64,000 nucleotides of DNA from Okamejei kenojei (taxonomy: Eukaryota), in the NCBI GenBank assembly GCA_035221665.1, contig CM069147.1:45260001-45324000 (forward strand), given 5' to 3'. Below the pieces are notes generated by a model. That model saw only the letters and a list, made by a program, of their open reading frames with translations, ran no database searches and was not told where the DNA came from. Below are positions 1 to 54,199 of the stretch, piece by piece (the first letter of the stretch is position 1; each line of letters opens with the position of its first letter). A program made the translations under genes and the position numbers.

Positions 1-1383
1 AACCAATTAGGCATGGTGGAAAATGTACTAGTTAAGTTGCTCAGAGATTTTAGGACACTGTGGCAGGTCTTTAATACCAGATCTTTGCGAGCAGATTGGT
101 AACCTGCGTGTTTAATTTTCAAAGCTTTGCTATTTATATGCGAGGTGGGGTGTCTGAATATCCGTGGGACTGACAGCTCTGCATAGTGCTGTTGTATATA
201 CCACTTGTGTCAATGATGTCCGTGTAAGGAAATAAAGCTCCTTTGTGCTGAAGTGTACATGACAGAGTAAAAAGGAAATGGGGGAATAAATGTGAAATAA
301 GTAAGCTGTTCAGCGATGGAGAATGTCGATGCCTACACCTGCTCAAGATTTTTCTTTGAATTGTTAGATATTGACCCTCGAGACCCCTGTGGATTTCCTA
401 ATTGAAAATTAATATTGGATCAATGCAGTGAGTCATTTGCATATTGATCATAAACAACTTTGAAGGCACAAACTATATGGAAAAGACCAGCTGGATCAAT
501 AGGGCCCTTCAGTAGACTTCAGTGTAGTACATCACATTACACCGCACTGCACTAAAGGTTAATGACTCAGAGCAGTTAAGTACCATTGTTGCTTAGAACC
601 TGCGGAGAGAGATTTTCTTTGTAGCACAATGGAAATTGACATGTCAACTTTAAACTTGGAGCGAAGCATGAAAATGTGTGAACTGAATATCCTAAACCAT
701 TCTGATTTGTGAAACTAGAGTGAAAAGAACAGTTGCTTGATTGGGCTCAATTGTTAGATTATTGCCGTTGTTTCATTCAGAAAGGTGGCAGGATTTAACG
801 ATCGTTAAACAATGTTTATGCCAAATCATGATATACAGGGTGGGCATTATATTTGGCTATGTGGTATCATATACAATATGGGAATCAGAAAACCTGATAT
901 CAAGAGGCTCCTTAGCCACAATGGTTCACATTCATTTGCAGTGTTCACACTTGACCGTATTCTGGAAGAAGCACTGGATGTCAATCAAGTGCCAAGAATC
1001 CAACCAGACCTCTATCAATTGAGGACACCCCTTCCACATTCCCGGCTGAAATTCACCAAACTTCCTCCGTGAATCCATTTGTGATTTCTGATCAAAATGT
1101 CTGCTGACTCTATCCAGTCTTGGAATTTATTTGTACTAGTTTCAACATTAACATTCCTTGATTTTTCAAGTCACTGACTCTGACCAGATGCAGCTGCAAA
1201 TGATATTGTTAATACATGAGCAATGATGATGTTCCTGTTGTAAACGCGATGGGATTAACAAATCTATGGCTCCCTAGCTCTTTGATGAGTTTACCTATAA
1301 TGTGGAAAGTGACAACCACAGCTTTGATTTATTTGGAGCCCTTTGTGTATCAGGAGGATTGCCAGCCTCTGCCAGGATTGTTA

Positions 1384-13030: not shown

Positions 13031-15854
13031 TGGAGAAAGCCATTGTAGGCCCATAAAAGTGTAGATGTGCAGATGAGTAAAGGGTTGGGTTAAATGAGGG
13101 GAGTTGATCTCAGGTGTTTGTGATTTGGGTATCTACTTGCAAGGTGGTTGCGAATTTGGCACGGCGTCACATTTTTGTTTGTACATTGCATATAAGTAAT
13201 GAGATTACCCTTTTGCAGCACTGACCTTGAAATGCAAAAACTAAATTACCTTTTATTATCTGTTTTGTGCTGTCAGCTCCAAGCCTCCTGCACCCAGTAC
13301 CAACCTTAGCACAGATAACAGGAAGAATTAGGAAAAAAACACATATTTTCAGCTGCCAAACTTGGAGAATTCAGCAGGCTTAATTTTAATAAATGCAAGA
13401 TATCTGCAAGTCCAAAGCCAGTGCCACAAAACAACACAAACAAAGAGGACTTTAAACAGTTTTAGAACTGCAGAACATGAGAGGGACACGAATGAGCATT
13501 CAACCCCTCAAAGACTCTGCCATTCAGCAAGATCTAAACTGACCTTTCACTTCATTGTTTTCGTGCCCTATCCACCTATCCCTTGATTCTCCTAATCCCC
13601 AAAATCTATTTAGTTTCTTTGTTTTGAAAGCATTGAATGACTGAGCCTACACGGCCCTCAGTTGTAAATTGATCAATTTTTGCGTGAGGTTTCCCTATCA
13701 TATTCCTAAATGCCCTATTGTTTATTTTGAGGATGATCCTAAATGCTGGTTCTCTCAGGCAAGGGTCTGAGTATTGTCTGAGCTCTCCATGACTTGTATT
13801 TCAGTGAGGTTACGTCTCATTCTTCACGACAAAGACTTAACATGTGTAATCTCTGCTCATACGACAGATCGACATCTCAGGAACAAATAGAGAATCTTTG
13901 CTGCATTGCCCACCACTACTCTTCTATAGCATCTATCCTTCCACACATTAAGACATACATATGGTAAATAACAGTCCAGGTGAGGTCTCTGTAAAGCCTT
14001 CAGAACTGCAGTAATATACTTAATTTCTACTAAATTCCTCTAAAGGCTAAACCGCCTTTCTATTTGCATCTGCATGTGAGCTTCCAGTGACTCGTGTACA
14101 AGAATGCCCAAGACCCTTTGAACATGGGTTGAATTCAAACCATTTCTTGATCTCCCACCATTTAAACAAATACTCAGCATTTCTGTTTTATTTATCAAAA
14201 ATGATCACACATATGTATTTTTCAAAAAATAAATTCCAAAATGTTAGTTATAGATGCTGCGTGTCCTCTTGGGTTATTCCAGCACTTTGTGTGTCTCTTA
14301 AATTAATTGCTCTTTTTTGTGGTCTCTCAAGAATTCAGAATCCAATGAAATTATAATACGTGAGCAATAAATCATGGAAATCTGAAAAGGGAAGAGGATT
14401 ATCTGCTAGGATTTTCTCACTGGAATCTGTCACTAAATTCACCATCTCTTCTCACTGAATGTACTTGGGAGGCGTTGCAACTGGAAAATTAAGTTAATAA
14501 TTTTGCTTTTTCTCATATGGTCATCAAACAACGCACGCCAACTGTTGGAAAATAACCTGGAGATATAGGGCAGAGCAGCGCGCGGAAAGCGTGCACTGGG
14601 CGAAATATTAATTTTAACCCTGTCCGGCGTTAGGATGATTATTTCCATCTTCTCGTGAGCAGTGCATCTTTGATATACTCTGGCTGCGAGTGATCTGACC
14701 TTTCATTTACCCTTTTGAAGGGGCACTTGGTGAACTTAGAACAAGCTCAGGTACTCAACCCTGGCTTTGAAAATAAAACAAGCACTTCCACCGAGGATTC
14801 CATCGGGGCAAAAAGGACACGTGCTGGAGCCCCGAAATTTTCTTCAGTTCTGGATTTCAGTTTTTGCATGGAAATGCTATTTCTATTTCATAAAATAATG
14901 TCCATCCTCAAGCAACGCGATCAGAGGGACAACTATCACATCATGTCATTATCCTTGTCACGAGCACTCTTTGTACAAAATACATTGCCAAGGTGATGTC
15001 AGCCCACTGCTTGTTCGCCACATCAAACATTTTGTGTCATTACACGACAGTGAATTCCGCTATTGGGATTGTTAAATGCAAACCAACCACTTTATGTAGT
15101 TCTTAAAAATATATGTACAGGGTGTGCACAAAATCACGTCCAATTTGATTGTTGATTGGGAATAATTTGATGGATCTTCACGCTAGGTTCTTAATTTGGG
15201 CTTCAGTGCAGTAGAGAGGGGTGCTTGGAAGGGGTGAGCTAGTGAAGGCTTGAGGGGGATATGTGTTAACAGCCCAGCAATTGACAAATTCATTCAGGAC
15301 TGTTAAAACACAAGCACTGAAATAAAGGTTTAAGATGTGATTGATCGAGTGGCAGTTACAGACACCATGTTTCTTTTATCATGAATTGCGCCAAAATTGT
15401 AAAATCATGCGGTATGCTTTTGTGCTTCGTAGTGATAGCAAGCAGAGGAACTCGCCTCACATGCCTTCGTTTTAAAAGATAGCTATTAACATATGGGTAG
15501 GATTGTCACTGTTGTCCTTATGTGTCGAGTCTGCCTTCACTTTGGCAAGACTTTACACACAGCCATCACATATTGTTTAATTAATACTCCAGTGTTCTTA
15601 ATCTTAACCTTCTAGTAACACATTCTCAAGTGCAAACTTCAATGCTCAACATCATTGAATAATCAATACGGTGAAATAGTGAATATGTTAAAGCCGAATG
15701 GAAGAGTGAAAAACAACAAATGCGGCAAATACATTGTCCACCCGTGAGTGGCAATACAGGACCGGATTGAGCTGTAAAATCAAAATCTGGGCAATGCATT
15801 ATTACCAGGATTGTACAGTAGGTTACAATTACTGAAGATCCAATGAGAAAATGG

Positions 15855-16240
15855 ATTGAAGATAGACACAAAAAGCTGGAGTAACTCAGCGGGACAGGTA
15901 GCATCTCTGGAGAGAATGAATGGGTGACCTTTCGGGTCGAGAGACTTCTTCAGACTAGTTAGTGAAAAGGGAAACAAGAAATATAAACGATGATGTGGAG
16001 ATATAAAGAACAATGAATGACAGATATGCAAAAAAGTAACGATGATAAAGGAAACGGGCCATTGTTAGTTGTTTGTTGGGTGAAAACAAGAACCTGGTGC
16101 GACTGGGGTGGGGGAAGGATGGAGAGAGAGGGAGTGCAGGGGTTACTTGAAGTTAGAGAAATCAATATTCATATCACTAGGCTGTAAGCTGCCAAAGCGA
16201 AATATGAGATGTTGTTCCTCCAATTTGCGCTTAGCCTCAC
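15855..16240 (-). mobile_element. 3' end of a Penelope-like retroelement: GIY-YIG endonuclease C-terminus plus 3' UTR with hammerhead motif
   Basis: Minus strand 16238-16143 reads EAKRKLEEQHLIFRFGSLQPSDMNIDFSNFK*, matching the R..E...I......P.G.N end of PLE GIY-YIG domains; hammerhead-like core at about 15925-15955. Confidence 0.85.
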
Positions 16241-18395
16241 AGCCAAAATTGATCTGTTTCCAGTGCAAACAGGCCCAAGGATAAACCTGTACCTAAACCA
16301 GCACTAAAAACCCAGTCTATCCCAGGCCACAAGCAGTGTGGCATGTGGCAGGAAGTTATTACTCAGGCCCAACGTGCCATGGAAGTAATGCAGCAGGGAT
16401 ACAATCGTTGCCACATTATGGTTGACTGGAAGCTCTTGAAGCTGCCACATCAGTTGTCTTCCTCTCCTTCACCTCAAAATTGTATTAAACTTACAAAGTA
16501 AAATTTAAAAACATATTTAAGCCTATTTTCTGATTCATTTATTGCATCTTGGGTCACTCTCGTATCAAATATTGAAATTAGAGCCTTATTGTGGAGGTTA
16601 CTTAAAGAAAATGTTCAGACTGGCGATGTGAGAAGCTGCAGGGAGAAGGAGACAAGTGACTGGAAAGTGTTTATAACCTATTGACCAAAGTAGCCCATCC
16701 AGACACACAGCAAAATTGTTGACAATCACCTTTTCCCTTTTTCTTTTCACCCCCAATTTCTAAGTGACCTATTTCAGCAATAAGACAAATCCTTCTACCC
16801 TCGTTTCACAAAGTACTCTTTTCACAGTGGTTTCCTTTTCCTCTGAGTTGGATCATTTTCAAGTGACTTAATCAGACATTTGAAGAAATCTCAATGGACA
16901 TAAACAAGAGCGTAAGTGTGTTTCGTGAAATGTTGTCAAAACTCCCTCATGGTGAGAGGCAATTTTACAGTTTAGAGATGCAGAGCAGAAACAGGCCCTT
17001 TGGCCCACCGATGTAGAACGAGGAATCGCCTGGGTCCTCACTTACAACACCAGAAAGAGGATGCACTGCAGATTGTGTGGCGTTGCATAGAAAAAAACAA
17101 AGGAGTAATAAAAACAGGGCCACCTTGATTCTTCTTTAAAAGATTCAATTATATAAGAGCCCTGCTGCAATTTTCCTGGAAGGCGTTCCGATAGGATTAT
17201 TATTGAAAGACAATGTGAATGTTCATTTTGAATGGCAATTGTGTGTGAGCTGTATCCTACCACAGGAAACAGGTACCAAGATGTGAGGCAGCTGGCTCGC
17301 ACAGCACATGCAACATAGCCTCATGGTTTACAAACAACAGAAAGCCTTTGAAGAAAACCTGTCACTGTGATACTGACTAAATGGCCAGGGTGCATATTGC
17401 AGCCACATAAATACAATACACAAAGTTGATAGTTTTTTTTTTCATTTAGTCCTGTGAGGCAGATATTTCATATCTCTTCCTGCAGGCTATTTTCGACACA
17501 ATGAGCAAGAAACACTATCCAAAGGCTGGCATCGCTCAGCTACTTGAAATGTGCTTTGGGCCAAGGACATTAACATTGTCATGAGCTGCAATCAAATCAT
17601 GTTTAAATATTTGCCAGTGGATTGGAAAATGCAATGGTACAGATATGGCAAGAGAAGGAGTAACAGGACACCTATTTGCCATTATGATGGAGATATCAGC
17701 CCACTCTGAATATGTATAACCCAGAAAACGTATTGATTTTTTATTTGGAATAAGAATCACCAACCTGAAACTGTCAGATTCCTTTGTTAATAGCTCATCC
17801 CCTGTAGATGCAGTCCACCACAAACCAGTTTTAATTGTAATGCATGCACTCAAACAAACAAACACAAGCTGTCCTGGACCATTCACCTTTTTAAATCCAT
17901 CTTTCCAAATGAACAAATCGTCAATAGTGGCTCAGAATTTGCCACAACCCGGGCATCTCACAACATAATTGTTTTTAATAATCTTTCCCTTCGTTATGAA
18001 TATTTTTTAGCAGCAATTGTTGGGAGCATGATGAAGCTTTTGACAGCCACTGATAATGATGGCTTGAAGCTGACAGGGCAGGCCCCACCATCTTGGTGAG
18101 CTATGGGACCAAACGTTTATCTCCTCAACGAGTGATGGTCAAAGATTGACGGTGCAGTGGTTCCAACTGTTGGGACTGGGACTGTTCACAAGCAAACTCT
18201 CAACCTTGCCTCAAATTGCCGAATGACTGACATGTCAACATCAACATCTGCAGTAAACTCACCGCTATTTTCCCAGTCTTCTTTATGTGTTTGAACGTGG
18301 TCTCATTTGTCCACGTACTGAACACTTAGTGCTGAAGCATACCAGGGATGGCGGAACTCTAATTCCATTCACCGCAACCAATACCTGACCTATTA

Positions 18396-18452
18396 AGTTA
18401 CTCCAACGCTTTGTGTCTTTTTCTGTAAACCAGCATCTGCAGTTCCTTGCTT
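18396..18452 (+). mobile_element. Penelope-like module terminal fragment
   Basis: agttactccaacgctttgtgtc...aaaccagcatctgcagttcctt. Confidence 0.55.
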
Positions 18453-18597
18453 CCATGTTTTGCTGCTCTATTGCAAAATCTACTCAAGGTATGTCTACTT
18501 TGAAGAAGTTCTCCATACTCCGATGGTAGTTCTGTGATACCCTCTCTCATTGATCCTCCTCTGCGATTCCTGCCACTCTCCTGCTCTTCCACCGTGT

Positions 18598-18950
18598 TCA
18601 GTTCCGTTTAGTTTATTGCCACATGTTCCAAGGTACAGTGAAAAGCTTTTGTTACGTGCTAACCAGCCAGTGGAAAGACAATACATGATTACAATCGATC
18701 CATTCACAGTGTACAGTTACATGATAAGGGAATAGCGTTTAGTACAAAGTAAATGTCATGACGAAGTCATGCCCCACTGCCTCAGTGACCCAGTCTCGAA
18801 CTTGACCTTGGGTGCAGTGTGTGAGTGGATTTTGCACATGGCTCCCTTCTCCCAACCCGGTGCTCAGGTTTCCTCCCATACTCCAAAGGATGAAAACAAA
18901 ACTAAATGGGAATGTTTTGACATAGACTCAATGGGCCAAATGACCTTCCT
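18598..18950. mobile_element. Rex1/L2-type LINE tail fragment followed by a degenerate HE1-type SINE
   Basis: ccaaggtacagtgaaaagcttt...catgattacaat is shared with 42966-43120; ctgcctcagtgaccc...ggtgctcaggtttcctcccatactccaaag is SINE-like. Confidence 0.55.
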
Positions 18951-20003
18951 CTCGTGAGAAAATGCGGAATATATATTGCCACTCACAAAGAGGAAATGTT
19001 TTTGGAGGATTTTGGGTTTTTTTTTTTGCTTTTGCCTTCTGCTTTATTATATTTAGTACTTCACTCTTTCAACATTAAGAATCGTGGAGCATTAACTAAA
19101 CAATATGTAATCCCCATGTGTACACACTTGTCCATGTTCCTTTAGTGTGCTGCTTTTGCAGTAGGGAGACTTGCATTCCATTCACCTGGGCTGGATTGGA
19201 ACATGGTTGCAGAGATGAAAAGTTGATGTCTCACCCGCTCCAATGCCAAGAAGACCTTTGAACTGACTGTTTGAAATAACACCATCTATTCCATTGCTTT
19301 CATGTGGTCAAGGTGCAATTAAACCTTGAGCTCGAGGTTAACACAGGGTGGATTTGTGTACACCTCAGTGCGGAGATGTCCATGGTGTATACTAAGCTCA
19401 GAGACACGGAACACTCACTTGCAAACTCATTTGCTGTTTTGAGTCTGCAAGTTGTGCTCTATAACTATTTGCTTTTAAAACTGCAGCATTTCAACACAAG
19501 TTCACTTGCCTTTCATTATTCTTTTATAAAGTCTCTGATGTACTGAGGTGTGGGTAGTTACTAGGCAGTATTTATTTTATCTTTTCAAAGTGATTAATAT
19601 TTTCTTGTTACCCTGGACTCCAGCCGAGATAGTAAGTAACTGAGCTGGTCGACAGCCGATTTGATGTTGGACATTTCCCAATACAGAACAGATCAATAAC
19701 ACTAGTGCGGCAATGTACTGCTGTGATTGTGACACCACATGGCTTGGCATCTTCCTCGTACGATTCAGCTGAACTTTAGGAAATGGGGAGCATGTTCTCT
19801 GAATCGTACCACGCAATGGTGTTTGTTTACAGAGCCTCCCTCAATCCCCACCCCCCCCAACCCTGCAAGTGCTGGGATGCATCTCTTGCGCAAAGCCATT
19901 TGTCCGCTGATGAAGGGTTTCAGTTATAATGAAAACCACAGCACTTGGGACTGTGAGCAGAAAGGACAGAGATGCATAAAATCTTGACAGTTTTAAAAGA
20001 GTA

Positions 20004-20229
20004 AGGGCCTGTCCCACTTGGCCGTCATTTGCTCGTCACTTCCTCAACATCATTTATGCGTCACGACGCACGACGGGCACGTTGTGACCCGCACGTGATG
20101 CGCGCATGGTGTGTGGCGACGTAGGCAGTGACTCCAGGTCGTGCGCGACGCCCCAGGATTTTGGGATGTACAAAATCTTTGCGCGCCATCTGCATGGCGT
20201 GCAAATGACGCCCAAGTGGGACAGGCCCT
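20004..20229. mobile_element. PIF/Harbinger-like MITE, CpG-rich
   Basis: TIR agggcctgtcccacttgg / ccaagtgggacaggccct; 3-bp TSD GTA (20001-20003, 20230-20232); same subfamily as 58124-58313. Confidence 0.85.
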
Positions 20230-21170
20230 GTAGATGTCAGCTATTCCCATCAGCGGAGGTATCAAAGACACATTTACATTGATTGCCAAACATCCAGGGT
20301 GATGCAAGGAAAAAGTTATTTGCACAGCCTCTGTGGTGGATACAGATTCAGTTGTCGCTTTCAAAGGGAATTTGATAAATATTTGGTGATCAAAGTTGGG
20401 GAAACGGGGCAATGAAGGTAACGGGTTTGTGCTGAAGGACAGAATGGTGAGCTGTAATGAATTAGCAGGTTTATGAAATGCAACGTCTATTGCAGAATGA
20501 AACTCTTATTAATTCTTGTGTGAGATTGAAATCAGGTGAGATTATAACTGCATCCTCACTAAAGTCAACCACAAGTTGGATCCTGGTGCATGGCAGAGCT
20601 GAGACCACACTATTGGTGTTTTATATCTTTGAGGCCCAGCCCGTTTCAAGGTGACTTGTCCATCTCGGGCCTAAATTCATATTTTAGTTTAATCGGGTCT
20701 GATTCCCAGATCAAAAGAAACTTCAAATGTAATCACATGTTGTTCTATTGATCTATCCCTTTTAACCCATTGAGATTCTCAGAAGAGGAGCTGTGAATCC
20801 ATATAAAGCCCTCGTACCTATATTTAATTTACAGAGAACGTCTTGTGTTAACCGTTCTTGTATCTGTGCAGTAACTCCCTGCTCACTTGCCCCAGTAATG
20901 TATTCCTTCGTAAAGGACACTACCCACTCCCCTCCATGCCTGACCTCCCTCATGTGATGTACTTCTCAGACCGCAGGGCCAGAACTACACCCTTACTTCT
21001 TCCCCCCCCCCCCCCCAACACTCCCCATTTGTGTAATGTAAAGCCTGCATGTCTCTGGCTAGCAGTGCTCTGCAGACCTGATAGTATATACATAAAACTG
21101 ATGGAAGAGGCAATCAAAAGCTACATTGTGAAATACCTGCAGAGAGTGAAAGGGAGAGTGTGTGAGAGAG

Positions 21171-21173
<3 letters not shown>

Positions 21174-21201
<28 letters not shown>
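21174..21201. repeat. (GT)n microsatellite
   Basis: Direct dinucleotide run. Confidence 0.95.
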
Positions 21202-21441
21202 TGGTGAGAGAACGCGATGCCAAATAGTTTTAATTGGGACAATTTTTGGCCATCCAGTCACCGTATGGCTCCTTTGACAAAACAATCTGATCATGTTTAC
21301 ACAGGTTACATTATCTCTGATGGGGTTGTTGCAGCTGCTGTTAAGTTCTTCAAAAGTTATGCCAAGGAACCTCAAGAATACTTACTTTCTTTTCTCACCG
21401 AACAGCTGGGGAACTTAATGAGCAAAAATCTCAATCAGCTA

Positions 21442-21468
21442 ACCTGACCTGACCTGACCTGACCTGAC
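21442..21468. repeat. (ACCTG)5 pentanucleotide repeat
   Basis: acctgacctgacctgacctgacctgac. Confidence 0.95.
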
Positions 21469-23441
21469 TTTGCATATTGTCCTTAATAAGGACTTACATT
21501 AAAGCATTGACGAAACTGTTCATTCTTTGGGAAGTGGAGGATTGTCATTGTTCTGGGGCCCCCAGTCACTGCTGTTTGTGATTAAGTTGATGTGTAAAGT
21601 TTTGCTGTTTGCAGGATTCGGCCCCTTCACAGCATTGGCACAAAGTGCTCATTCACATTTAGATTAGTCTAACAGCTCCAGAGGTCAGTCTAAGGTCAGA
21701 CTTAGTAATGATGTAAGGAGAGGCATGTCTGGGATTCTTATTTTGAACTGAAACATGTACCAGGAACTATTGAGAAAGATGCACCAGCAAGTAAAAGAGT
21801 CCAGACCTGTGGGTACAATCTTTCTGCTTGATACCTTAACGGACAATGGTTGTTTTGTTTAAAGTAACCTTCCTGCTTTTTATGGTCCTATTTACTAGGC
21901 CCAGGGCAGCAGATCACTGTTTCTGAGTTATTGCGGGATTATTTTTAAAAGAGAAAGGTGACTCGGATGGTAGATTACATGCAGCCAGAAAGCACAATCT
22001 TTGCAAGGAGATGTAGATGTGTTACAGCAGTAGAGAGATGTTTAGAGATGGAGAGGTGCACAAGATCAAAAAAAAAACCTGGACTATGCATGAAAGAATC
22101 ACAGCATGGAAGCCAGCGCTCATTGTCTCTGAGCGCACTCCAGCCAGCAGTGCATGTCGTTTCTCATTTTATTACAATAAAAAGGCGCAAGGATTGTCAC
22201 TTCAATAACCACAAAGCAATTTCTTTTTTTATATATTTACAAAAAAAAATCCTTTTTAAAAAAAAATTAGAAGATTACCCTTCCTTCGAAGATTGCAATT
22301 AAGAGCCAGTTAATATCCACAAGTGGGGAAACGCCTTTTTTTAATGAAAAAGTGGCTTGCTTTTTTTTTCTTCGCAAAGAGATCTTAGATCTTGTCACAG
22401 TGTAATGCAACTGAACTGACTGACGGCAACTCAGGCCTCCAGGAATAATATCCTGTTTTGTGGCTAAAGCTGAGATATTTTACAGGCATGAGCGAAAGAT
22501 GAAATGCGGATGCCAACCGACCTTTGCCCTTTCCGAGTTACTTCATACAGTATTAGCTTTTGATGGTATTGGTATGTGAGGTACCTTAGCTTTCTCTGCA
22601 AACCTGATTTATTTTTTTGCATCCTTTGATCTTAATTTTTTTTTGAAGAAAAGGTCCTGGGTTTAAAAATTCGAAATTAAAAAAAAACCTGCCACAATGT
22701 ACATTACATCAGTAAAAGTCTTATTAAAAATCAATGTAGCACAGCAGGATAAGAGGTGGTAAAATATCTTTTCATATGATGGATTCCATCAGGAGGCAGA
22801 TATCCAAGTCGCCACAGGGACTGCCTCTTGGAATCCTACACTTGTACCGAGATTTTAATATGATTAATTGATGTGGTCCAAAATGGTGCATGCAGAAAGC
22901 ATTATAAGATTCTCTTTTTAAATCAGTTTGTTTTTATTGTATCATGCCTGGTATCCAGACACCATGGTGAGGTATATTATTACCATGTGCACAGGTTAGT
23001 GGGGGTGGAGGGGGTTGGCTCGGGAAACAGGTTGACGTTCAACGTCTGCTTGCTTAGACTGCCACCTATAGGTCAAACATGGAAACGAGCAGACGACCAA
23101 ACAATTGTGTCCTGATGAACAAATTGAAAATCTTGTCATATTCGGCATTGTTTAGGCATATTTTAAATCATGTCCTTCTGAACATAGATTATTGTTCTAA
23201 AGTAGTCTTAAATGTGATTCTCCCAGTATATCCTAACATTAAATACTAAATGAAAACGATGCAATTGTGAAGTTAACTATGTTGGCTACGAGCCAGTTAC
23301 GTTCTCCTTGCATTCTTCCCTGCGATGTTTTGACTCCATAAGTTCAATTGGAAAATGTTTGACATCAAATATTGCGATTATCTCACTCTTTGCTCCCGTC
23401 AGAAGCACATTCTTCATTAACCTTTTTTCCTCCTTCCTCAG

Positions 23442-23549
23442 AAGAAACCAACGAAGATGTGGAAGGCCTTAATGAGCCCATGCAGGAAGCAGAAGATTCT
23501 ACCAAAGACAAAGACAGTGGAAGCGAGAAGGAACCCAGCAAAGACACAG
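23442..23549 (+). CDS. ZFHX3: Internal coding exon (108 nt, phase 1-1) of a zinc finger homeobox gene, most likely ZFHX3 (ATBF1); peptide (E)ETNEDVEGLNEPMQEAEDSTKDKDSGSEKEPSKDT(G)
   Basis: Seen: branch-like ttaac, strong polypyrimidine tract ccttttttcctccttcctcag, purine-rich open exon, donor CAG|gtagag, length divisible by 3. Recalled: the ZFHX3 linker exon EEAIEDVEGPSE...KDQ.. between zinc-finger clusters is flanked by large introns and phase-1 boundaries. ZFHX4 is a less likely alternative. Confidence 0.7.
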
Positions 23550-25384
23550 GTAGAGCAATACGTACATATACTGTATGTTTCCCAACCACCTATAGGAATT
23601 GAGAATTTTGTGAGAATTCTTTCACAAGAATTAGCTACACAATTCCAAATGATGTCAATATATTTCAACAGCTTCAATGACAGTCAATTTTTGTAGCTTA
23701 TTTTGCATTCTCTATAAGTAAAACTTCAAAGCAAAGCTGAAAGAGGTTAAACAAAAAAAGGTACAATCATCAGCCCACCAAAATGTTGAACATTTGCTTT
23801 GCACAGACTTAGTTTGATCCAACGTTTCAGTGGGGATTCTAAATGTTTGTTTGATAAGTTGAGGCAAAAACAGTTTTAATTGTATGTGCACTGGAATGAA
23901 ATAATACAAGTCTACACTTGAGAAGTTGAAATAACCTGCATCTGAAACTCTTTGGATTCCAGGGTGCTCAATGCAATGAATTTTGTCATAATCTGTAGAT
24001 GTCACCTGTTGGATGACAAGTACCATTTCACTATTCAGCTGTTATTTAGTTCTTTGTATGATGTGGAATGAGTTATGATTTGCAGATCTTACTTATGAGA
24101 TTTGGTCTGGGAAGTCATGGACATGGAAACTGCAGTCCTGTTAGAACTGTACCTTAACTTGATACAACTATTTCAGGGTATTATTCGTAATGAAGTATTT
24201 GGAGCAAAGATATTTAAATCCCCTAAGAATGTCCTTATTTTCCCGACAAGTAAAATTGGACTTAGGAACACAATTGAATGCCAAAGTGTCCAGTGATAAA
24301 GGCAAACAGAATTGTATGTGATAACTGCTTACAACCTGATGCATCATTCTGCTTTGTGAGACATGATGGTGACCAAGAGAGGTTTTTGGTTACTTATAAC
24401 ATAATCATCACAGACACAATGATGTCAGAAAATTATTGCATTCTTTAAAATTATCGTCTGTTTATGAAACAGTTAAATGAGTTATTGTTTGAAATGTGAG
24501 CGGAGAATTTGAAGTTTTTAACAAGTCTCTTAACTGCATGGTCAATGCAATTTAAAATAGTGTTTATGAAACAAAATCTTTGTTCAAAATGAATGGCAAC
24601 AAATCAAAAGAACATTCTGGCAGGAATTTGGGATTTCGTGTAAAGGCACCTTCCGTTAATATTGATAACCAATTTATAAAATAATTTACTTGAAATTGGT
24701 CTGAAATATTAGCCTGGCATTCCCTGTAATATGTCTGCCTACTTCAACATCACGCTTCCATTACATTTCCACTCGTGTCTGTCCTCATTTTCTTAACCAA
24801 AAATGTATTATTTGATAAAACAATTTCCATAATAACTAGTTTTTCATACAAAATGCATTGTGATTGCACAGTAATTCTTTTATGTGAAAATTGCATTACT
24901 AGACCATAAAATGAATATTAAAATGATTCATTACTTTAATGAAATTATTTATAAAGTTTTAGGGCATTTAAAGATTAGTTAAAATTATAAAACTGAATGA
25001 TCTTTTTACACGTTCATTTTTATTTTTCATAAAATTAGCCACAAAAAAAAGGCATTTTGGTATCTTTCCTCAGTTCAAGTTGAATTTCACATAGATTGCT
25101 GTATTCTATTCAATTTGTTGCCCACTTACAATTTCTAGCCCTTTGAGTGCAAAAGTTCCCATTTACCACATTTCTATGAAGGTAAATGGTACTCATGAAT
25201 AATCTGTGTGCTCTAAAACCATATAATAGCAGATTCTTGGTATAATACCACTGCACATACCATAAATTATCATATAAGACTCCATTTTTAATTTTTGTGA
25301 AGAACCTATAAAAAAGTGCCAATTTACACTTAAATTGTGTGAGAATTTTACTGTGCACGCAAATATGTAGTAGTATAAAGTACG

Positions 25385-26720
25385 TCCTCAATGGCTATTT
25401 CTTCTCTGTTTTTTCCATGGAGAAAGCCATGAAGACTAGGGAACTTGGGAGGTGTTTTGAGGACAGTCCTAATTACAGTCGAAGAGGTGCTGGACATCCT
25501 AAGACATTTGAAGGTTGAAAAATCTCCGTGGCCTGATCAGATATTTCCAAGAACACTCTGGGAAGCTAGAAAGTAAATTGCAGAAGTCATGGCTGAAATA
25601 TATGATCACCATTAGACATCGGTGAAGTGCCAGAAGTCTGGAGGGTGGCAAATACGGTGCTTCTATTTAAGAAGTAAACCTGTGAACCATGGGCTAGTGA
25701 GCTTAACATTTGTAGCAAGATAGTTGCTGGAGAAGATTTTGAGGCATTTGGATAGACAGTGTTCGGGCGAGTCAGCATTATTTTTGTATGTGGGAGATTG
25801 TTTAGGTTGACGAGGACTGGTAGGCTGCTCTAGAAGGCCAGATGGCATGGGATCCAGGGAGAGCTAGCTAAGTGGATACAGACTTGGCAACTTGGCAGGA
25901 AGCAGAGGGTGGTGGTGTGATGACGATTGTTCCTCAGACTGAATGCCCGCAAGAAGTGATCAGCTGGGCAAGTGGACTGAGAAATGGATAATGGAGTTTA
26001 ATGCAGATAGGTGTGAGGTCACAGTGTGAAAACAGGCCCTTCGGCCCATCTTGTCCACACTGGCCAACATGTTCCAGCTATACTCATCCCACCTGCCTGT
26101 ACCTGGTCCATATCCCTCCAAACCTGTCCTATCCATGTACCTGTCTAACTTTTTCATAAACGTTGGGATAGTGCCAGCATCAACTACTTTCCCTGGCAGC
26201 TTGTTGCATTCACCCACCACCCTATGTGTGAAAAGGTTATCCCTCAGATTCCTATTAATTATTTTCCCCTTCACCTTGAACCTATGTCCTCTGTTCCTCA
26301 ATTCCCCTACTCTGGGCAAGAGACTCTGTGCATCAACCCAATCTATTCCTCTCATGATTCTATACACCTCTATAAGATCACCCCTCATCCTCCTGTGCTC
26401 CAAGAAATAGAGACCCAGCCCACTCAACCTCTCCCGACAAGGGATTCACGAAATAGAGGAAAGATTTAATAGAAACCTGAGGGGCAACATTTTCACACTG
26501 AGTTGAGGCGGGTTCAGGAAATGAGCTGCCAGAGGAAGTAGTTGAGGCATGTGCAATAACAATATTTGAAAGACATTTGGGCAACTACCTGGATAGGGAA
26601 GGTTTAGAGGAATATACATCAAACCTTTGGGACCAGCTTAGATGTGGCATCTTGGCCAGCATGGATGAGTTGGATTAAAGGGTTGTGTGACTGTTTTCAT
26701 GTTGTGTGACTCTTTAACTC
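25385..26720 (+). mobile_element. Decayed CR1/HER1 LINE (reverse transcriptase remnants and 3' tail) with an internal inverted fragment
   Basis: RT remnants (KSPWPDQIFPRTL-like, aatgcagataggtgtgaggt = NADRCEV) and a typical 3' tail ending tgtgtgactct. Confidence 0.8.
26020..26435 (-). mobile_element. HER1/CR1 LINE 3' fragment nested in the opposite orientation
   Basis: ORF track LGLYFLEHRRMRGDLIEVYRIMRG..RGHRFKV is the CR1 ORF2 C-terminus. Confidence 0.9.
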
Positions 26721-27490
26721 TACATCAGCTACAACTTGCAACTGGGAAATAACAAAACAAATATCCGACAGGTTTTACTTTATGGTCTGTAAGTCACTAC
26801 ATTTTACTACTCTCCTGGTAAAGGCTTGGTATGAAAGCTTTCATTACGGTAGGTGTTGCAATGCCTGTGGCAGTCCATGTTGGGGGATGCACAATGCACA
26901 TTCCACTGCAACAATCTCTGTGATTCCACATCCTGAAACCAGTGATGCATACTTTTGTAGCCGATAAATTATAAATTTTCCGTGATTATTTTTCAGGAAC
27001 ACTTTTCCCACCATCTCAGATGTTCATACTTTGCAGTCAGAAGTCACTTGCCCGATCCCTTCATATGGTAAAGTCAAGGTTTTTGTTTTTACGAGACAAG
27101 CCACTGTAGCATTAGTAGGAGCCCAGAGTTTCTTCACAGAAGCTTTCAAACTGCAAGGTGTGCGATCAAACAAAATTCTCTTAAATCCTCCCCATGTTGA
27201 AATGTGACTTCACTAGCATTTGACAGAACAGAAAAGTGGGGTCACAGGAAGAGGGACAATGCCAGTGATTTAAGATTTACTCAGCATCAGAGATCAGAAC
27301 TGCTCTATTAGTACTCAGTGAACTACAGCCTAACTTCCGAAACCAGTAGCAGAAACATTACCTAAAATCGTATGAGCCTTGAATAAGATAGAATTCAGGC
27401 ACAAGTCATGTATAATGTTTTGCTTTGCAACTTAAATATAATTATGAATCTGAAAATAGCGCACCGAGAGTTAACACTTGAACATAGTTT

Positions 27491-27717
27491 ACAAAAGGCT
27501 GGAGAAACTCAGCAGGTGCAGCAGCATCTAAGGAGCGAAGGAGATAGGCGATGTTTCGGGGCGAGACCCTTCTTCAGACTGGTCAGTCTGAAGAAGGGTC
27601 TCGACCCGAAACGTCGCCTATCTCCTTCGCTCCTTAGATGCTGCTGCACCCGCTGAGTTTCTCCAGCCTTTTGTGTACCCTCGATTCTCCAGCATCTGCA
27701 GTTCCTTCTTTAACACA
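27491..27717. mobile_element. Palindromic Penelope-derived mini-element with hammerhead cores on both strands
   Basis: 91-bp inverted arms (27491-27581 and 27584-27674) around a 2-nt loop; TSD tgaacatagttt at 27479-27490 and 27718-27729. Confidence 0.85.
27586..27618 (+). ncRNA. Minimal type-I hammerhead ribozyme motif with intact core
   Basis: CUGAAGA (27588-27594), extra A, helix II GGGU-CUCG-ACCC, GAAA (27608-27611), palindromic ACGU helix III, GUC cleavage triplet (27613-27615). Helix I is very short and activity is unproven. Confidence 0.7.
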
Positions 27718-28496
27718 TGAACATAGTTTTACAGCTTTATTTTTGCATAGCAAGTGGCTGGTCTATAAAACACCAAACAGCTCATCTGCTGCTGCGTTTA
27801 CAGAGTTGGTGCTCTGGCTTCAGGCCAAGACGACAGATTTATTTTCTCTGATCCAGCACCGGTGAATTTGAACTTAGATTTTTGGTAGTTAGCCGGCTGA
27901 CTTATTCCTTAATAAAACCTTATGCATTTTTGAAAAAGAGAAGTTACCAGTTTAGAGTTTAATCTCTGCCTCAGATACTCCCATTATCGATCGACAAACC
28001 TGCCCTCATCATTTAAATTAATTTAAGGAGCAATGATTTTATATATAATGTTAAGATATGCATTGATGTAAATATCAATACTACCACTGGCTGGAGGTAA
28101 TTACTGTATCTCACTGTTATCCTTATCCACTTGACATGAAGAATGGAAGGAGAAGGTCCATGGATTTTTCTTTGCAGAGAAGTGACACGAAACCAAAGAC
28201 TGTCAACTTCTACCTTGTAGAAAATTGGTTAGAAAATATAAATAGGCTCTATTGAATTTGTAAAAAAAAAAGTCTGAGAAATATTTCACTTATTACAAAT
28301 GTAAGGAACGTGGAGCATGCCATTTTGAGGCGTAAGATTATTCATTTCATACTATAAATGTGATTCTTCATATCTAATGTGTAAAACAGAGAGACCATCA
28401 ATAATGTGTGATTGCTTTTGTGTTGGAATCTGTGTAACTGAAGATATTGTACATTCCTGGTCAAGAATTAGGGTGGAATTCATCAATAAAGTCGCA

Positions 28497-28617
28497 GAGC
28501 ATAGGACAGAAACAGGCCCTTCAGCCCACCTTGTCCAAGGTTCCCCTGGTCCAATTTGTCTGCATTTGGCCCATGGCCCTCCAATCCCTTCTTATCCGCA
28601 TATCTGTCTAAATGTCT
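28497..28617 (-). mobile_element. HER1/CR1 3' tail fragment
   Basis: acagaaacaggcccttcagcccacc...atatctgtctaaatgtcttt. Confidence 0.65.
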
Positions 28618-31600
28618 TTTACTTGACAAATAATCATAAAAGAAGGCAGATACAGGTATTTTATTCTCTAATGAGTTCTGAATATCACAGTGGAACATAA
28701 TAAAAGGAGAGTTAAAATAGATAGGCAACAGCGAGCATCATCTTTGAAGGCAGTTTCTGTAGTTCCTGGGCTAAAAATAAAATATAGCCTTTAGATTTTC
28801 TTGGTTAACAAATGACAAAATGTAATGCTCGACGTGTAGGCAAAATAATGCAGGCCCTTCAGGTTAATATTTTAAAATAGTTTTGGATGGTTGTCAACAC
28901 AATTAATGTTTCAAAGAAATTGGTACCAAAGGCTGGGAAATGTGAATAGACAACATGAAAAAGTGAAAGGTAATACTAAAACTAGGAAGTAACATTATCA
29001 AATTCCGTTGATTACCTGGCTAATAACAGAGGGTTTCTCAGGGCAAACTGAAAGTGTCTAATCATTGATGTGCCCTATTCTTCTCCACAAGTTCCTGTAC
29101 TAAAAATAAAATATTTATGAAACCATGGCCTAAAGGTTGGAATTGCTCACCTAACGTTGTGCGATTAGTGAAATGGACCGTTTCTGATTTGAGTTGCAGA
29201 GAGAGGAAGGGAGCAAGAGCTATTAAAGATGGTATTAATGGACTGCAAGCAAAGAAAAGTTGTCATGGAAGTGTGTTTATGGTGTATAGTGCTGGCAGGC
29301 ATGATTTCGATAGGCTTTGACATGTTTAACATAAATGTATACAGCAGGGCTCCTGCATTCATGAATAATTCCTTCAGGCCCCATGCCTCCCTAATTACTG
29401 AAATTGAAAAAATAGGTCATGCGCATCTTTACTTGAACAGCAGTATTTTTTCCTTCTCTGAGTGCTTGATGTGCAGAATACATCTGTGATACAATGAGCT
29501 GGCTGGACAAACAGCTGAAAGGACACAGAGAATGTAAGGTGAATAAAAAATGGTGGAGGAAAAAAAGTTTATTTTATGTTAATCTGTTCAGAGCTTTACA
29601 TTTTGTTTAATCTCTGAAGAAGAAAGGAATAGAAGATCCAGTTTTAATTGTCAGGCAAACATAAGAAATGAAGATATTGCAAGATATTGCAATTTCTAAT
29701 ACATCTGCCTGAGAATATTTTGCTTTTTCATTCATTTCTATTGTGAGAGACTCCAGGGTGCTATATGACTGAAATATGACTTTTTCGCATGAAAATATAT
29801 AATTTACGTTATTTAGTAAAAACGTAATAGAATGTCAAATATCCAGTTTCCTTATTATGGCTTTAACTAGGTTTTGTTCTACACTCCTTAATTATCAGAT
29901 CTTATCAATAATTATCAATAATTTATTTTCAAAGGATCTCTCATCCAAATTGGATTTTAACTTTGCTCTCAGCTGCTGATGGCACAAAGAATGCACAAGA
30001 AAGCCAAGGCAGTGTCTCAATAGCCAAAAGTATCATTAATTCTTTGCCAATACGCCAGTAAAATGTAAATGCCAGGCAGTTGTTTGCAACGTGATCATGC
30101 AGAGCGGTGCAGAAATATAACAGCGATTTAATGTAAACCGTGAGCTGCTTATTGTGGCATTTCGATTCCGCGTCCCTCCTATCTCTCGCTGCACACCTAA
30201 CATGGGAAGAGCAAAAACAACAAATCTGTGGACTCTTCCAAAATTGTCGTAATCACCACCGATGGACCCCTTGTCCCACACAGCCTCTTTCGCAAGTCAG
30301 ATTTCTCCTTCCACTCTGATGACATTGCCAAGGCCAGCAAATAGGAAGAAACCCTCAGTGTGAAAACCAGCTGAGACTGGAATCTGAAATTGGGTCCCTT
30401 TGTTAAGAGTCAGGACCCCTTGGGTTGCAGCTACCCAAGGCACAAACTCACCTCTTGAAATACATCCCTGCTGTCAGTTTTTTTAAATATAGATTGACAA
30501 GTTAACTGTAAAGCTGAGACATTTGGAGGGAGATGTAATGTAGGTATGATTTTTGAATCCTATTCACTGCTGCCTGTTTAATGACCTACCTAGACTGCAA
30601 AATCAGAAGTAACGAGTATTAAAGCTGTCTAATATACCATAGCCTTCACATTCAATTAAATCACTCAAGGGTAATTTTTTCCACAGAGCCATAAATAAAG
30701 ATGGAAGATGATTTCCGAAGCAAAAATTAACCTAATTGATGATACCTAAAATCTTTTGAGAGGCAGAGAATCGTGAAGGAAAATGTCATAAAGGTTAGAT
30801 TGTTTGGGTTTTTAACATCAGTGCTGTACATCAATGATGGTCTGCCATCTTTATAAATGATGTAGCATGCTTGGAGCATGGAAGGATGGAATATTTCCAT
30901 TCTGGATAAATAATAAACCTCAGACACTTCAGACAATTTAATCCATGAATGCATTATGTCTTAATAAGAATGGACCTGATTGGCATTTTCTTTCCCTCTG
31001 TGACGCTCTAGCTTTATAGAGCAGAGCCCGAATCCCTAGCCCTCTCCCATTCTTTTCAGTCACGTAGATAATGCCCCAGAAACAAAAAATGAAGTCAAGG
31101 GAAGCTTTTATTAGAAAAGATATCTCTTTTATTGGTCAAATCTGGTATTCTGAATCTGTTTTGATGGCAAGAATTTCATCTTCATATTTCACATGATAAT
31201 GTCACTCATAAAGATATTCTGACTGATTAATATTCATTTTTGCCATATATTGAAATTGATTTATTTGAACTGCAACCAAAATACCAGTAATTCAATAGGT
31301 AACAAATGATTGATGAAATTCTGTCTGAAAATATTACATAAAAAATGCATCATTCTTGATGTAATTTAAAAAAACATAGCTTTATACAGAGTAAAATCAA
31401 ATCAGCCAAAATGCTTCTGCTGGATAACTATGCGGACACTATGGACAATAGATCATACGTGTTAGAAATTACTTTAGACCTAAGTTACCACTTAGTCACT
31501 CTTCTAGGGCAGGGCAATGGAGAAAGAAATTCTGTTTGTATAAAAATTAGAGACTTCTTGGCTCAGTAACCCAGTAATCTGGACCCGATCTACCTCCAAA

Positions 31601-31987
31601 ATATTTGCTACAGAAATGTTCCAATTGAGAAGGAAAATTAGCCCATTTCCAACTTACCCCTAAGTTTAAATACAACCTGTTGACAGATATGCCATCAACA
31701 TTGATTTTCAGGGTCGTAAAAGAATCTAGAATCTGATCCAATTCACATCTATCATGCAAGCAAAATACAAGGTTCTTAATAGAAGAGTAACGATGCACAT
31801 GCGTTGTGTAATTCCTGCAAACTACTCGTGAAGCACAGGAGGGCCTTGATACTTTTAGCCTGCACTTTAATTCTGTAAATGCATTCTTATTAGATATGCC
31901 CTCGGAATTGCGTTTAAAAAAAATCCCTCCACTCAATGTGCAAGCCTCTATTTAAATTCTAACAACTACCATAATGTACCAAAATTC

Positions 31988-32385
31988 TTGATTTTGCTTG
32001 GGCAGCTTACGCCCTAGCGGTATGTACATTGTCTTCTCTAACTTCAAGTAACCCTTGCTTTCCCCCTCTCTCCATCCCTCCCCTTCCCAGTTCCCTGACC
32101 AGTCTTACTGTCTCCGACTACAGTTTATCTCTGTTTGCTCTCCCAGCTCACAAAGATCTATTCTACATTTCCATTGATTTTGATTCCCTTTGTCCTGTTT
32201 TCACACCTTACACTTCCTTATCTACGGATCTCCCTTTCCCTTGACATCAGTCTGAATAAGAGTCTCGACCACAAACATCACCCATTCCTTCTCTCCAGAG
32301 ATGCTGCCTGACTCATGAGTTACTCCAGCATTTTGTGTCTATTTATCATCGATTTAAACCAGCATCTGCAGTTCCTTCCTACACA
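31988..32385 (+). mobile_element. 3' end of a Penelope-like retroelement (GIY-YIG tail plus 3' UTR, decayed hammerhead)
   Basis: 31998-32051 reads LGSLRPSGMYIVFSNFK*; UTR homologous to 15855-16240; decayed core tctgaataagagtctcgaccacaaacatc near 32251. Confidence 0.8.
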
Positions 32386-32404
32386 AAATACTTGATTGAT
32401 TGAT

Positions 32405-32712
32405 TAAGATACTGCATAGAAACACGTCACTTGCCTCATGGGGTCCACACCGACCATTGATCACCCATTTACACCAATTATTCCAATTTGCAATCCACTC
32501 CCTATGCACTTGGGGCAATTTACAGAAGCCAATTAACCTACAAACCTGCATATCTTAGCGATGCAGGAGGAAACTCGAACACCCAAGGTAACCCACGTGG
32601 TCATTGGGAGCACATGCAAACTCCTCACAGATAGCACTCAAGGTTAGGATTGAACCCAGGTCTCCAGCAATGTGAGGCAGCATGTCTACCAGCTGTACCA
32701 CTGTGATGCCCT
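32405..32712 (-). mobile_element. HE1-type SINE
   Basis: aggattgaacccagg (B-box) and tgtgaggcagca head on the minus strand; gaagccaattaacctacaaacctg core. Confidence 0.8.
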
Positions 32713-35700
32713 TCAGATTTTTCTTGGTACTAATTAAATGGAACTTGAGTAAAATGCACAGGAGATGGGTTTTTCATATAAAACTGAATATAAAAATCGG
32801 CATCATTTTTATATTTCTTGCATTGGGCTGTGCCACGTTATGAAAAATAATTTTAGTGTTCAATTTCGCAATAAACCTTCAATTTCCCTGAGATCTCCTG
32901 ATCTCCTGTGTTGAATAAAAATCTGAATGTTTTGCATTAACTGCATTTATGTCCCATTTTTAAAGGAAATTATTTTGCTTTGTGTACCCTTATTCTGTGA
33001 TCTGCAGCATCACTTTCTTCCCAAACAAATGCGCCAGATTATCCCTGAATACTTTTATTCATGTTATCACTTCTAAACCATTAGGATAGCAGTGTAAAAT
33101 GTTTATGTAAGATACAAATTTCTCCTTCAACTTTCAATTTTCCAATATATCTTGAACGAGACTCTGGGAATGTTATATCTGTATACCGCAGTTACTCACA
33201 CAACTGCATCAAGTAACATCTGATAGCATAACAAGCTTCATTTATAATACTCTCTGCATAAGCACTTAATCCACAAGAGTAACTAGCAGTACATTTAACT
33301 GGTGCAGACAGATACATTGTATAATGAAACAGGTAACCTTAAGTTCTCTGCAGAATCGCTTTGTACAGGAGAGACTATGTATGGCAGTGGTGTTCTTCCA
33401 CCCTGATCTTAAAACAAAAATGATGTCGAACATAGAACCGCCAAAAATCATACCCTTGCTTGACCTACACTGATGCTGTAGAGGTATGAGGTGAGAACCC
33501 ACACAAGGAAGGTCAACCAAATTGCAGTTTTGTGCTAACCTTTGCGACACCACACAACCTGCCTCTCCTTTTTGGAAAACACAGTTCTTTTCGCCATTGC
33601 TGAAAGTAAGCGGAACTATTTTTAGATGCAAATTATTGCCGAAGCCAGTAAACAAATGAATTATATCTGGCATGTCTACGGTGATAACAGCAGTCAGTGA
33701 TTAAAAGGTTAAAGTGTTGCACAGCAGTGAATTTTTATTATTAATAAGCAAGAGAAAGGCAGGCAAATTTATAGCCGCAAAAGTTTATTAGTTTACGGTA
33801 TTGTGTTATAGGCGCACGATGCTGAAAACACGGGACTTACGGAAAATGGCATGAATTAATAATTACCTAATTGGCTCTTAGATTTTTTTTCACTGGGAGA
33901 TGGAAGTTTATGTGATGTCCCTGTCAAAAGTACTTTAGCTGACTGATGTAGATGCAAGAGAGAGAAAAATAACCACCACACTCATGTGGGATGGTGTCCT
34001 GGGTAGGTTTTCCGTGTGGCTTTGGTATAATGTATGGTGCTACAGCAGATTGTTGTATGTGTGGGTAATGTCAGGTCTGCAATGTAATCATTTTTGACGC
34101 CTGATCTTTGATTGAGACTGACACTTTAATGTCTGGAGCTGTGCAAGAGGTCAGATGTGGTTAACCTGGCTTTCTAACCTCCCTATACTTACAAAAGCAA
34201 TGTCATTTAATCAGCCTAAATTTAACTCTTTACGATCTGAGGACCGGTACGAAGATGGCTTTTTGAAGTGTCAGCTTCAATCCTTGTGGTGAAAACAATA
34301 AAATAAAATATTGAGATCTACTTCAAGCTACATCGTGAAGGGAACGATAGCCAATCCTCTGACCCAATGTAGCATTTTAAATAGTACTTGCTTTAGTTTG
34401 ATTGCTGGAAGATGTTGAAAGAACGTACTAGCTGCTCCTTCCCAAGTCTGCGTGCTACATTCTGAGCGACGAAGCTTGTAATCCCTCTGGTGTTTATTAC
34501 AAAGTAGTTAAACTGAGCAACCAAACACGCAGATGCTCTGAGAAAAAAAAGCCCTCTGTTTTGGCACTTTTTATGAGTCCATCTAACCAGCCAGATGCAT
34601 TCTCTATGCAAAATTAAATAAATTGACCAGCGCATCTCATTCAAAATTAATTTATATCTGGCCAAGCTCTCTGGTATACTTTCTGCTTACTCCTAATTTT
34701 TGAAAGTTCTGCTAACTGTTCTTTATTTAGTCGTGAAAGTTAACTGTCGGAAGCACTTATTTGTACTGTCATTGGAAAGCTGTACAGGAGAATAATAGCA
34801 TCGCAGAGTAAATTAAAAGTGCTGCAGTGCAATTGATAAACACCATGTTTTAAAAGAAACCCAATAGGCTCGCTTGATTTACTAGTTTGAAATTTAAGTT
34901 CAGTAAGCCAACAGAAAAAAAGGTATGTTTTCTTGGCCTTAAAGGTTTTTCCATTACTGCCATTAACTTCCAGTTTGGCAGCCGCTGAAGATTGTAAACT
35001 CTTCCACAACTTCAGGGCTGACCTTGCTGTGTCAGCTGGTAGGAGATAGACATCATTTTAAAGTCAGACACATGTGCCTCGGACCCACTGAGAAAACAGC
35101 ACACATGGAATACTTGGCCCGCAGGTTTGGAAAATTAGCTTAAATCAAGACTTAAAGAAATCCCTCCATCCGAGGTGTAAAGGCACCGTTCCACGGGCAT
35201 CTTAGCTGAGAACACCATACCGAAGCGGGTAAATTAAAATCTACCTTAAAAACATTGCCTCTGAGATTTGCTCTCCGGTGAAAGCAGTTTGGAGAAGATG
35301 GACAGTTTTACTTGCCGTGGCATTCCTGCAGCATATGTTTCCTTGACACTAAATGTCTGCAGTAACCGTTGTCCTGTTTGACCTGTTTCAGCCACATTTG
35401 GTGCTCAGGCCTCTTGCACTCATTTATTATTTATTCACTCAAATGACAATCACTCAAGGAACTGAGCAAAAAAAAAAAACGGGTGATTTGAAAGGATATG
35501 AGTGAAAGATTGCATTGTGTTTGTGGATTTTATTCAGTAAGTCTGAAGTAGATCCAGAGTACACAGTAGTATGTAGATGATGACATTTATTTTCCTGGCA
35601 GGATAAAATTCGGAGGCTTCTGATGTATGACTGTCTCAACACATGTTCATTCTCCATCGCTTGAAATCTCCAGATGTCATAGATTATTTTTATTAGGTGC

Positions 35701-53974: not shown

Positions 53975-54199
53975 GATAGGCCCAAAATGCTGGAGTAACT
54001 CAGCGGGACAAGCAACATCACTGGAGAGAAGAAATGGGTGACGTTTCGGGTCGAGACCCTTCTTCAGATTGAAGAAGGCTCTCGTCCCGAAACGTCACCC
54101 ATTCCTTCTCTCCAGAGATGCTGCCTGTCCCGCTGAGTTACTCCAGCATTTTGTGTCTATCTTCGGTTTAAACCAATATCTGCAGTTCCTACCTACACA
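53975..54199. mobile_element. Palindromic Penelope-derived mini-element with two hammerhead-like cores
   Basis: Arms 53975-54066 and 54070-54161 around a 3-nt loop; intact core on the minus strand at 54040-54067; extra tail to cctacaca. Confidence 0.85.

Follow-up and report, generated by a model that had tools for sequence, protein, structure and literature searches.

The 227-bp insert that lies inside 27479..27729 of the window (the whole stretch of 64,000 nt that was analysed) is best read, at a probability of roughly 0.8, as two head-to-head, 5'-truncated ends of a Penelope-like element (PLE) that were joined here, likely in one event, and whose hammerhead motif is predicted to be inactive (Table 1). 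Head-to-head pLTRs with a one-sided tail are already in print, the element is of a known kind and the insert an ordinary product of it; the locus itself is of little weight, as it is young, sits in an intron, is decaying and has thousands of similar by-products beside it. The population of mini-palindromes to which it belongs is nevertheless a large natural data set on the formation of inverted ends by PLEs. New here are the pairing of one short with one long end and the sharing of alleles between the arms, a pattern that would fit the priming of both target strands at two known RT starts.

Table 1. Coordinates of the insert, its hammerhead motifs and the upstream host exon (positions in the window; module position 0 = 27587)
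Feature	Position	Strand	Remarks
Host exon, 108 nt (upstream context)	23442..23549	+	AG/GT; long contigs edge to edge
Left target-site duplication copy, TGAACATAGTTT	27479..27490	+	extends to 27471 with one mismatch; single copy in empty sites
Inverted short-ended pLTR-head arm	27491..27586	-	module about -8 to +88; no tail
Damaged minimal hammerhead core (predicted)	27550..27577	-	helix II mismatch; ACGU to ACAU
CAG, 3-nt overlap common to both arms at the junction	27584..27586	.	sequence compared with long copies
Direct long-ended pLTR-head arm	27584..27717	+	module -3 to about +131
Minimal type I hammerhead motif (predicted)	27586..27617	+	intact core, C17 = 27615
One-arm-only stretch, mostly PLE tail between two recurrent 3' ends	27675..27717	+	
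Right target-site duplication copy	27718..27729	+	same 12 nt as left copy

The paired region consists of two arms of 91 nt each (27491-27581 and 27584-27674) that are 97% complementary with three differences, which bears out the description of two head-to-head 91-bp module copies in an earlier note on this DNA; they fold with an energy of -186 kcal/mol, which corresponds to z = -24.7 relative to 200 shuffled sequences. The right arm outruns the left by 43 nt past the paired region. Set against the common family sequence, all three differences belong to the left, short-ended arm: an A replaced by C in helix II, a G replaced by A at 16.2 and, further out, a C replaced by T. Two of these substitutions are transitions at CpG; the long-ended arm region is 100% identical across 137 nt to other genomic copies. 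At the junction, where the left arm reaches to -8 and the right to -3, a CTG-AC-CAG hairpin accompanies the 3-nt overlap, and the final 8 nt of the inverted arm are the reverse complement of CTGACCAG, which is found ahead of the module in long copies. The duplication flanking the whole insert measures 12 bp and reaches 20 nt at one mismatch (27471-27490 and 27710-27729). The target to the left of the duplication (27471-27479, TTAACACTT) matches the long end of the element over 7-9 nt (TTAACAC), and this match suggests that priming at the site may have been assisted by homology.

Four runs were compared over 27000-28200 for an empty site. One contig each in two of them (X6 and X9, from two other, related organisms) joins 27469 to 27709, and the 239 bp missing correspond to the 227-bp insert plus one copy of the repeat; in the other two runs, which bear one and the same organism label and one of which may be the source of the assembly, contigs enter the insert from both sides. 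The insert is lineage-specific, being absent in two related organisms, and as the flanks of these organisms differ by only about 2.5-3%, it is young. The empty-site check in related species that the earlier note had proposed was thereby borne out in X6 and X9 alike, and with a single copy of the repeat at the empty sites its claim of a true target-site duplication is confirmed. The host exon, an acidic stretch of 36 codons within a 10.8-kb contig, is spanned edge to edge by long contigs of putative RNA origin in three of the four runs (10,770, 3,992 and 4,206 nt). Its AG/GT borders on the + strand make this the sense strand of the host, with the exon 3.9 kb upstream of the insert, in agreement with the placing of the ribozyme core on the host pre-mRNA strand some 4 kb past the exon; no second exon was found among the pieces listed for 14500-34400. 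The insert is intronic, in an intron on the + strand.

From its sequence context, the module is identified as the pLTR of an endonuclease-positive (RT plus GIY-YIG) PLE. A 137-nt query gave full-length matches at 99-100% identity for all 40 scored candidates (40 of 261), and exact-word counts over the genome come to 23,297 for the 39-mer 0..+38 and to 41,214 for +35..+70. Upstream of many near-identical copies come a pyrimidine-rich UTR, then a GIY-YIG frame and then an RT frame, which agrees with the Penelope-like origin suggested earlier. These frames are broken in the element copies examined, and their Pfam matches (RVT_1 at E 3.5e-5 and 7.8e-4, GIY-YIG at E 5e-4) all stay below the cut-offs; with the RT piece as query, 321 matching proteins 719-2050 aa long were recovered, the best at E 6.6e-100, and RVT_1 plus GIY-YIG is annotated in many of them. 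In 4 of 29 loci (L148, L160, L162 and L164) a directly oriented module stands 823-824 nt ahead of one and the same body anchor and continues into the 5' body of the element; it thus follows one frame and precedes the next in tandem copies, as the pLTR of a tandem PLE does. The optional tail of 30-40 nt at one end, as in PLEs, is present. A cysteine linker, CNRKKCNTC, was seen between RT and endonuclease in locus L016; Zn-finger-like cysteine linkers are described for Neptune and Nematis and not for Poseidon in the cited passages of PMC8557442, and the linker motif, taken by itself, suggests that the clade may be Neptune or Nematis. Where the pLTR of L148 enters the body (about +150 to +170), there is a donor-like AAG/GTATGC with an ATG, possibly a PLE intron or a start codon. 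No account of this PLE family in cartilaginous fish was found in a literature search that had most subscription journals and supplements outside its scope.

The ends of the copies carry most of the evidence on how the insert was formed. They were recorded for copies in the order of their listing along contig C1, beginning at its start and staying within its first 8 Mb. The 0..+38 word marks 88 of these copies, of which 34 have their start at -7..0; among 100 copies with the +35..+70 word, 40 start at -7..+1, 18 at +2..+11, 6 at +12..+23, 5 at +24..+34 and 31 further upstream, so that the 5' edge of the hammerhead (-7..+11) is the starting point of 58. Adding 17 nt upstream to the 0..+38 word halves its count genome-wide (11,609 against 23,297), in line with this start hot spot, with mutation explaining part of the drop. 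The 3' ends of the 100 copies fall into a short class (+85..102, 67 copies) and a long class (+124..135, 33 copies), and solo copies (n = 61) bear either, the short end in 48 and the long end in 13. In palindromes whose two arms extend to +85 or beyond with an identity of 90% or more to the reference, shorter and more divergent arms having been set aside, a short end at about +94 is paired with a long end at about +130 in 24 of 27 cases (P = 3.7e-9 against independent draws from the solo copies, 2.5e-5 at 50:50), and in 23 of 26 after removal of one duplicated locus; the insert in the window (+88 with +131) obeys the same rule. The two arms of a palindrome also tend to carry the same alleles: they agree at polymorphic site +17 in 12 of 12 pairs (8.7 expected) and at +81 in 22 of 23 (14.0 expected), while site +91, beside the short end, gives no excess (16 of 21, 16.6 expected). 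Such sharing of alleles indicates that both arms derive from a single RNA or a single source gene. The ends of these 26 insertions, all from the first 8 Mb of a single contig, lead us to infer that priming was probably dual, at two RT start sites; the two short-short palindromes and the single long-long one do not fit dual-site priming.

The alternative that survives best keeps the same ordinary PLE product and changes only its origin: the inverted arm would come from fold-back self-priming on an antisense template, with the ends set at resolution. Antisense self-priming was proposed in 2013 as the origin of inverted ends, for rotifer Penelope elements (PMC3846280), and it likewise predicts alleles held in common, an overlap at the junction and stronger truncation of the long arm. 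All three are seen: the arms share alleles, the junction of the insert has its hairpin and 3-nt overlap, and in 22 of 24 pairs the truncation of the long arm equals or exceeds that of the short one (more 5'-truncated in 15, equal within 5 nt in 7). We nonetheless regard self-priming as unlikely. Either end occurs on solo copies, as expected from two start sites on a sense RNA of the kind demonstrated in vitro (PMC11167929), and in two of the 24 pairs it is the short arm that is more truncated. In L136, moreover, the long-ended arm comprises only +96..133 and abuts the inverted 0..+96 arm exactly at the short end, which reads as a pure non-overlapping twin-priming pattern. A variant in which cDNA from the long start folds back on itself was rejected; it needs the long arm to extend further 5', and that arm is shorter in 15 of 24 pairs and longer in 2.

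Under dual priming on a sense RNA, the reading preferred here, the element protein would make one nick in each target strand, with about 12 nt between the two; RT would be primed from one of them near +130 of the RNA and from the other near +90, and both cDNAs would head for the same stop near position 0. The free cDNA ends would then be joined through the 3-nt microhomology, and repair would leave the duplication. In the host pre-mRNA, the complementary arm, made first, would capture the core, and the left-over 91-bp intronic hairpin would decay by ordinary mutation. The junctions of L039, L032, L045, L048 and L062 hold partial repeats of the module of 25-41 nt, which suggests repeated re-annealing of the template near the stop site. 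A broader proposition, to which we give about even odds, is that mini-palindromes record PLE insertion as such, with an enzyme dimer priming both strands at two different fixed sites on one RNA and both cDNAs reaching the 5' end of that RNA, just before its uncleaved hammerhead; failure to jump from the RNA 5' end would leave either solo heads or head-to-head pairs. If this is true, twin priming on sense RNA would explain both the inverted pLTRs and their one-sided tail, and neither antisense self-priming nor ribozyme cleavage would be needed for inverted pLTRs. The short-plus-long rule and the shared alleles amount to two predictions that can be tested in the existing in vitro system.

As regards the template, none of the 100 copies with the +35..+70 word starts at +29, the base that directly follows the cut site (1 starts at +30 and 4 at +32), copies truncated beyond +35 being invisible to this word. 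The copies suggest uncleaved RNA as template, in agreement with the in vitro PLE result. The stop at position 0 is preferably read as the 5' end of the RNA; an internal promoter is described for D. virilis Penelope (PMC2377424). By analogy with D. virilis, where a PLE intron ends at the corresponding hammerhead spot (PMC4209133), the stop may possibly be the end of an intron. A spliced template (AAG/GTATGC at about +160 joined to CAG/T at 0) was sought and gave 0 matches in the genome. A cap signature, an extra G before the A at -2, was likewise looked for in the first 100 of 3,580 matches, and the bases, counted by hand, were G 36, A 42 and T 22, with no clear excess; the base upstream of 42 solo copies is A in 15, G in 12, T in 10 and C in 5. 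The sequence CCAGTCT at the hot spot fits both the initiator and the splice acceptor consensus. In the window (27579-27587) and in the long copies L080-L082, a pyrimidine tract and CTRAC..YAG/T precede the hot spot, in several subfamilies.

The earlier note had gone further and seen in the palindrome a propagating, retrozyme-like unit, that is, a non-autonomous palindrome transcribed and re-inserted whole by PLE proteins. Palindromes do have stereotyped outer ends and duplications of their own, and head-to-head junctions with 0-14 nt between the arms are abundant (2,337 matches genome-wide against 1 in the control). The centres, however, vary widely among the 50 junctions listed, where repeats are mostly minimal joins of 1-3 nt, and the exact 32-nt centre of the insert occurs in 4 copies in 2.76 Gb, the other three of which differ from it in arms or subfamily (an arm of 14 nt in the first, membership of another subfamily in the second, an extra partial repeat in the third); none has the structure of the insert. 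The outer ends are the same two ends that solo copies bear. The genome-wide search for identical centres and ends that the earlier note had called for thus yielded, on the genomic side, the randomly differing breakpoints that it had associated with ordinary insertion by-products. The pairs L040/L041 and L062/L234 have flanks in common and are accordingly duplicated regions. The pair L035/L036 (G000:C1:834631 and 890057) is of another kind, with the same 11-nt centre between different flanks and with duplications of its own; this shows that a joined form can recur and counts against de novo joining, as a local event only, the centre being found at just these two places genome-wide, 55 kb apart, possibly through local re-copying or conversion. 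Retrozymes, furthermore, form head-to-tail arrays with a hammerhead per unit (bioRxiv 10.64898/2026.07.22.740005, cited passages); head-to-tail units are absent here, where the arrangement is head-to-head, and so is a common junction with common ends at many sites. Centre diversity in these sequences would therefore largely refute a palindromic unit re-inserted as such, which we hold to be very improbable; the insert was likely joined anew at its site and not copied as a unit.

The hammerhead motif is predicted to be inactive, folded shut and a passenger. On the + strand the arm reads CAGT, CTGAAGA, A, GGGT, CTCG, ACCC, GAAA, CGTC and GCCT, with CTGAAGA at 27588-94, the extra A at 27595, a 4-bp helix II (GGGT/ACCC) at 27596-27607, GAAA at 27608-11 and C-G-T-C at 27612-15; an ACGT palindrome is part of the motif. 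The core boxes, the extra base, G10.1-C11.1 and the palindromic 15.2-16.2 of a minimal hammerhead are present, and the layout of the motif places the cut 3' of C27615, as forecast. Helix I measures 2 bp only (U.G and G-C, 27586-87 with 27616-17); the helix I of at least 4 bp that is a feature of minimal PLE hammerheads is absent. The 2-bp helix I recurs in 180 of 248 copies compared, in which core positions are 88-100% conserved, and among 129 descriptor matches it has 2 bp in 94 and 4 bp in 7, the 5' strand being supplied in these 7 by the junction or the flank. A working ribozyme on both strands, also claimed, finds no support in the minus core, which is hit by two of the three arm differences (U-A to U x C in helix II; ACGU to ACAU). 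The suggested Rfam check returned no hammerhead covariance-model match at gathering score over the window, nor any at E up to 10 among the 18 matches over 27400-27800, which are hairpin miRNA, snoRNA and sRNA models, all under their gathering scores.

Folding, computed at equilibrium and without protein, predicts that a hammerhead-like fold costs 8.2 kcal/mol in a single arm and 56.6 kcal/mol in the palindrome, where helix II has a probability of 0.000 in the full RNA; the proposed hairpin that sequesters the core agrees with these figures. A long-range stem between hammerhead box and tail is present in the single-arm fold and absent in the alignment fold (16 of 60 long heads). The head-to-head geometry has the antisense arm transcribed ahead of the core on either strand, and for this reason no kinetic window is predicted; in prefix folding, C3 is paired to the antisense arm at P >= 0.99 from 27592 on. 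These predictions speak against the kinetic switch of the earlier note and make it highly doubtful that the + hammerhead would cut the host pre-mRNA upon unwinding, editing or help from a PLE protein, even though the host sense strand carries an intact core, the hammerhead of the anole PLE works with the help of protein (PMC11167929) and that of a D. virilis PLE, like the one here, has a 2-bp helix I (PMC4209133): the blocking arm comes first, the same transcript segment offers no sense core as a dimer partner (on this strand the other arm is antisense), the insert is lineage-specific and no sampled copy starts at the cut site.

The window also holds older head-to-head inserts of a related subfamily (53983-54200, 55181-55361, 55682-55862 and 59946-60115), which are about 75-83% identical to the module and have different centres, near 54,070, 55,305 (repeated at 55,806) and 60,050. 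Identity between the copies at 55.2 and 55.7 kb, at a spacing of 501 bp, suggests that a local tandem duplication took place. Further stretches (46093-46599, 25960-26445, 41103-41501 and 62506-63030) resemble, by eye, LINE endonuclease/RT ends and a Tc1-type transposase, which we presume them to be.

In LINE-1 twin priming, the second target strand primes internally on the element RNA, giving an inversion within the duplication and microhomology at the junction, and the two parts do not overlap; here, in contrast, the two arms are usually copies of one 90-nt stretch, and neither start site varies. The short-plus-long rule was not found described as twin priming in the literature covered, with most subscription journals and supplements outside the scope of the search. 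As a hammerhead, the motif resembles the minimal ones of metazoan PLEs (PMC4209133) in its type I order, the extra nucleotide between 9 and 10.1, G10.1-C11.1, the palindromic 15.2-16.2 and the lack of loop 3, and pairs of minimal hammerheads on opposite strands, 100-700 bp apart, are reported there in metazoan PLEs. Helix I has 2 bp and helix II 4 bp here, whereas helix I has 4-5 bp in Schistosoma families; in the cited passages of the same paper a 2-bp helix I is given for the D. virilis variant only, and its supplements, which lay outside the literature search, may list the motif of the insert. With non-LTR retrozymes (bioRxiv 10.64898/2026.07.22.740005), the insert has in common that it is short, non-coding, related to a PLE pLTR and equipped with a type I hammerhead; retrozymes propagate as units in head-to-tail tandem arrays, an arrangement also given in a review (PMC6765202), whereas the insert is head-to-head and its junction is not propagated. 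The closest structural match is to the inverted pLTR units of PLEs (PMC3846280; PMC8557442), which likewise show a head-to-head inverted, 5'-truncated copy, a short duplication round the whole insert, a 30-40-nt tail on one arm and a small overlap at the junction; unlike these, as far as the cited passages describe them, the arms here consist only of a 90-130-nt pLTR head without a reading frame, and the palindromes number thousands.

For the mechanism, the nearest system is the Anolis Poseidon PAc element, whose protein, a predicted dimer, was found in 2024 to nick and extend both target strands in vitro, to start RT at two internal sites bounding the tail and to insert without hammerhead cleavage (PMC11167929). 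In the cited passages of that study these observations are not linked to inversions, and inverted insertions are not discussed. Its hammerhead cleaves only with its protein, and priming in vitro proceeds without homology, as against the 7-9 nt of target homology at the insert. The element here differs from Poseidon PAc in its cysteine linker, CNRKKCNTC, and in having no ATG at helix II; it is like Poseidon PAc in its two internal RT starts, which delimit the tail at about 90-130 nt from the hammerhead start, and, as the paired ends would have it, in the extension of both target strands.
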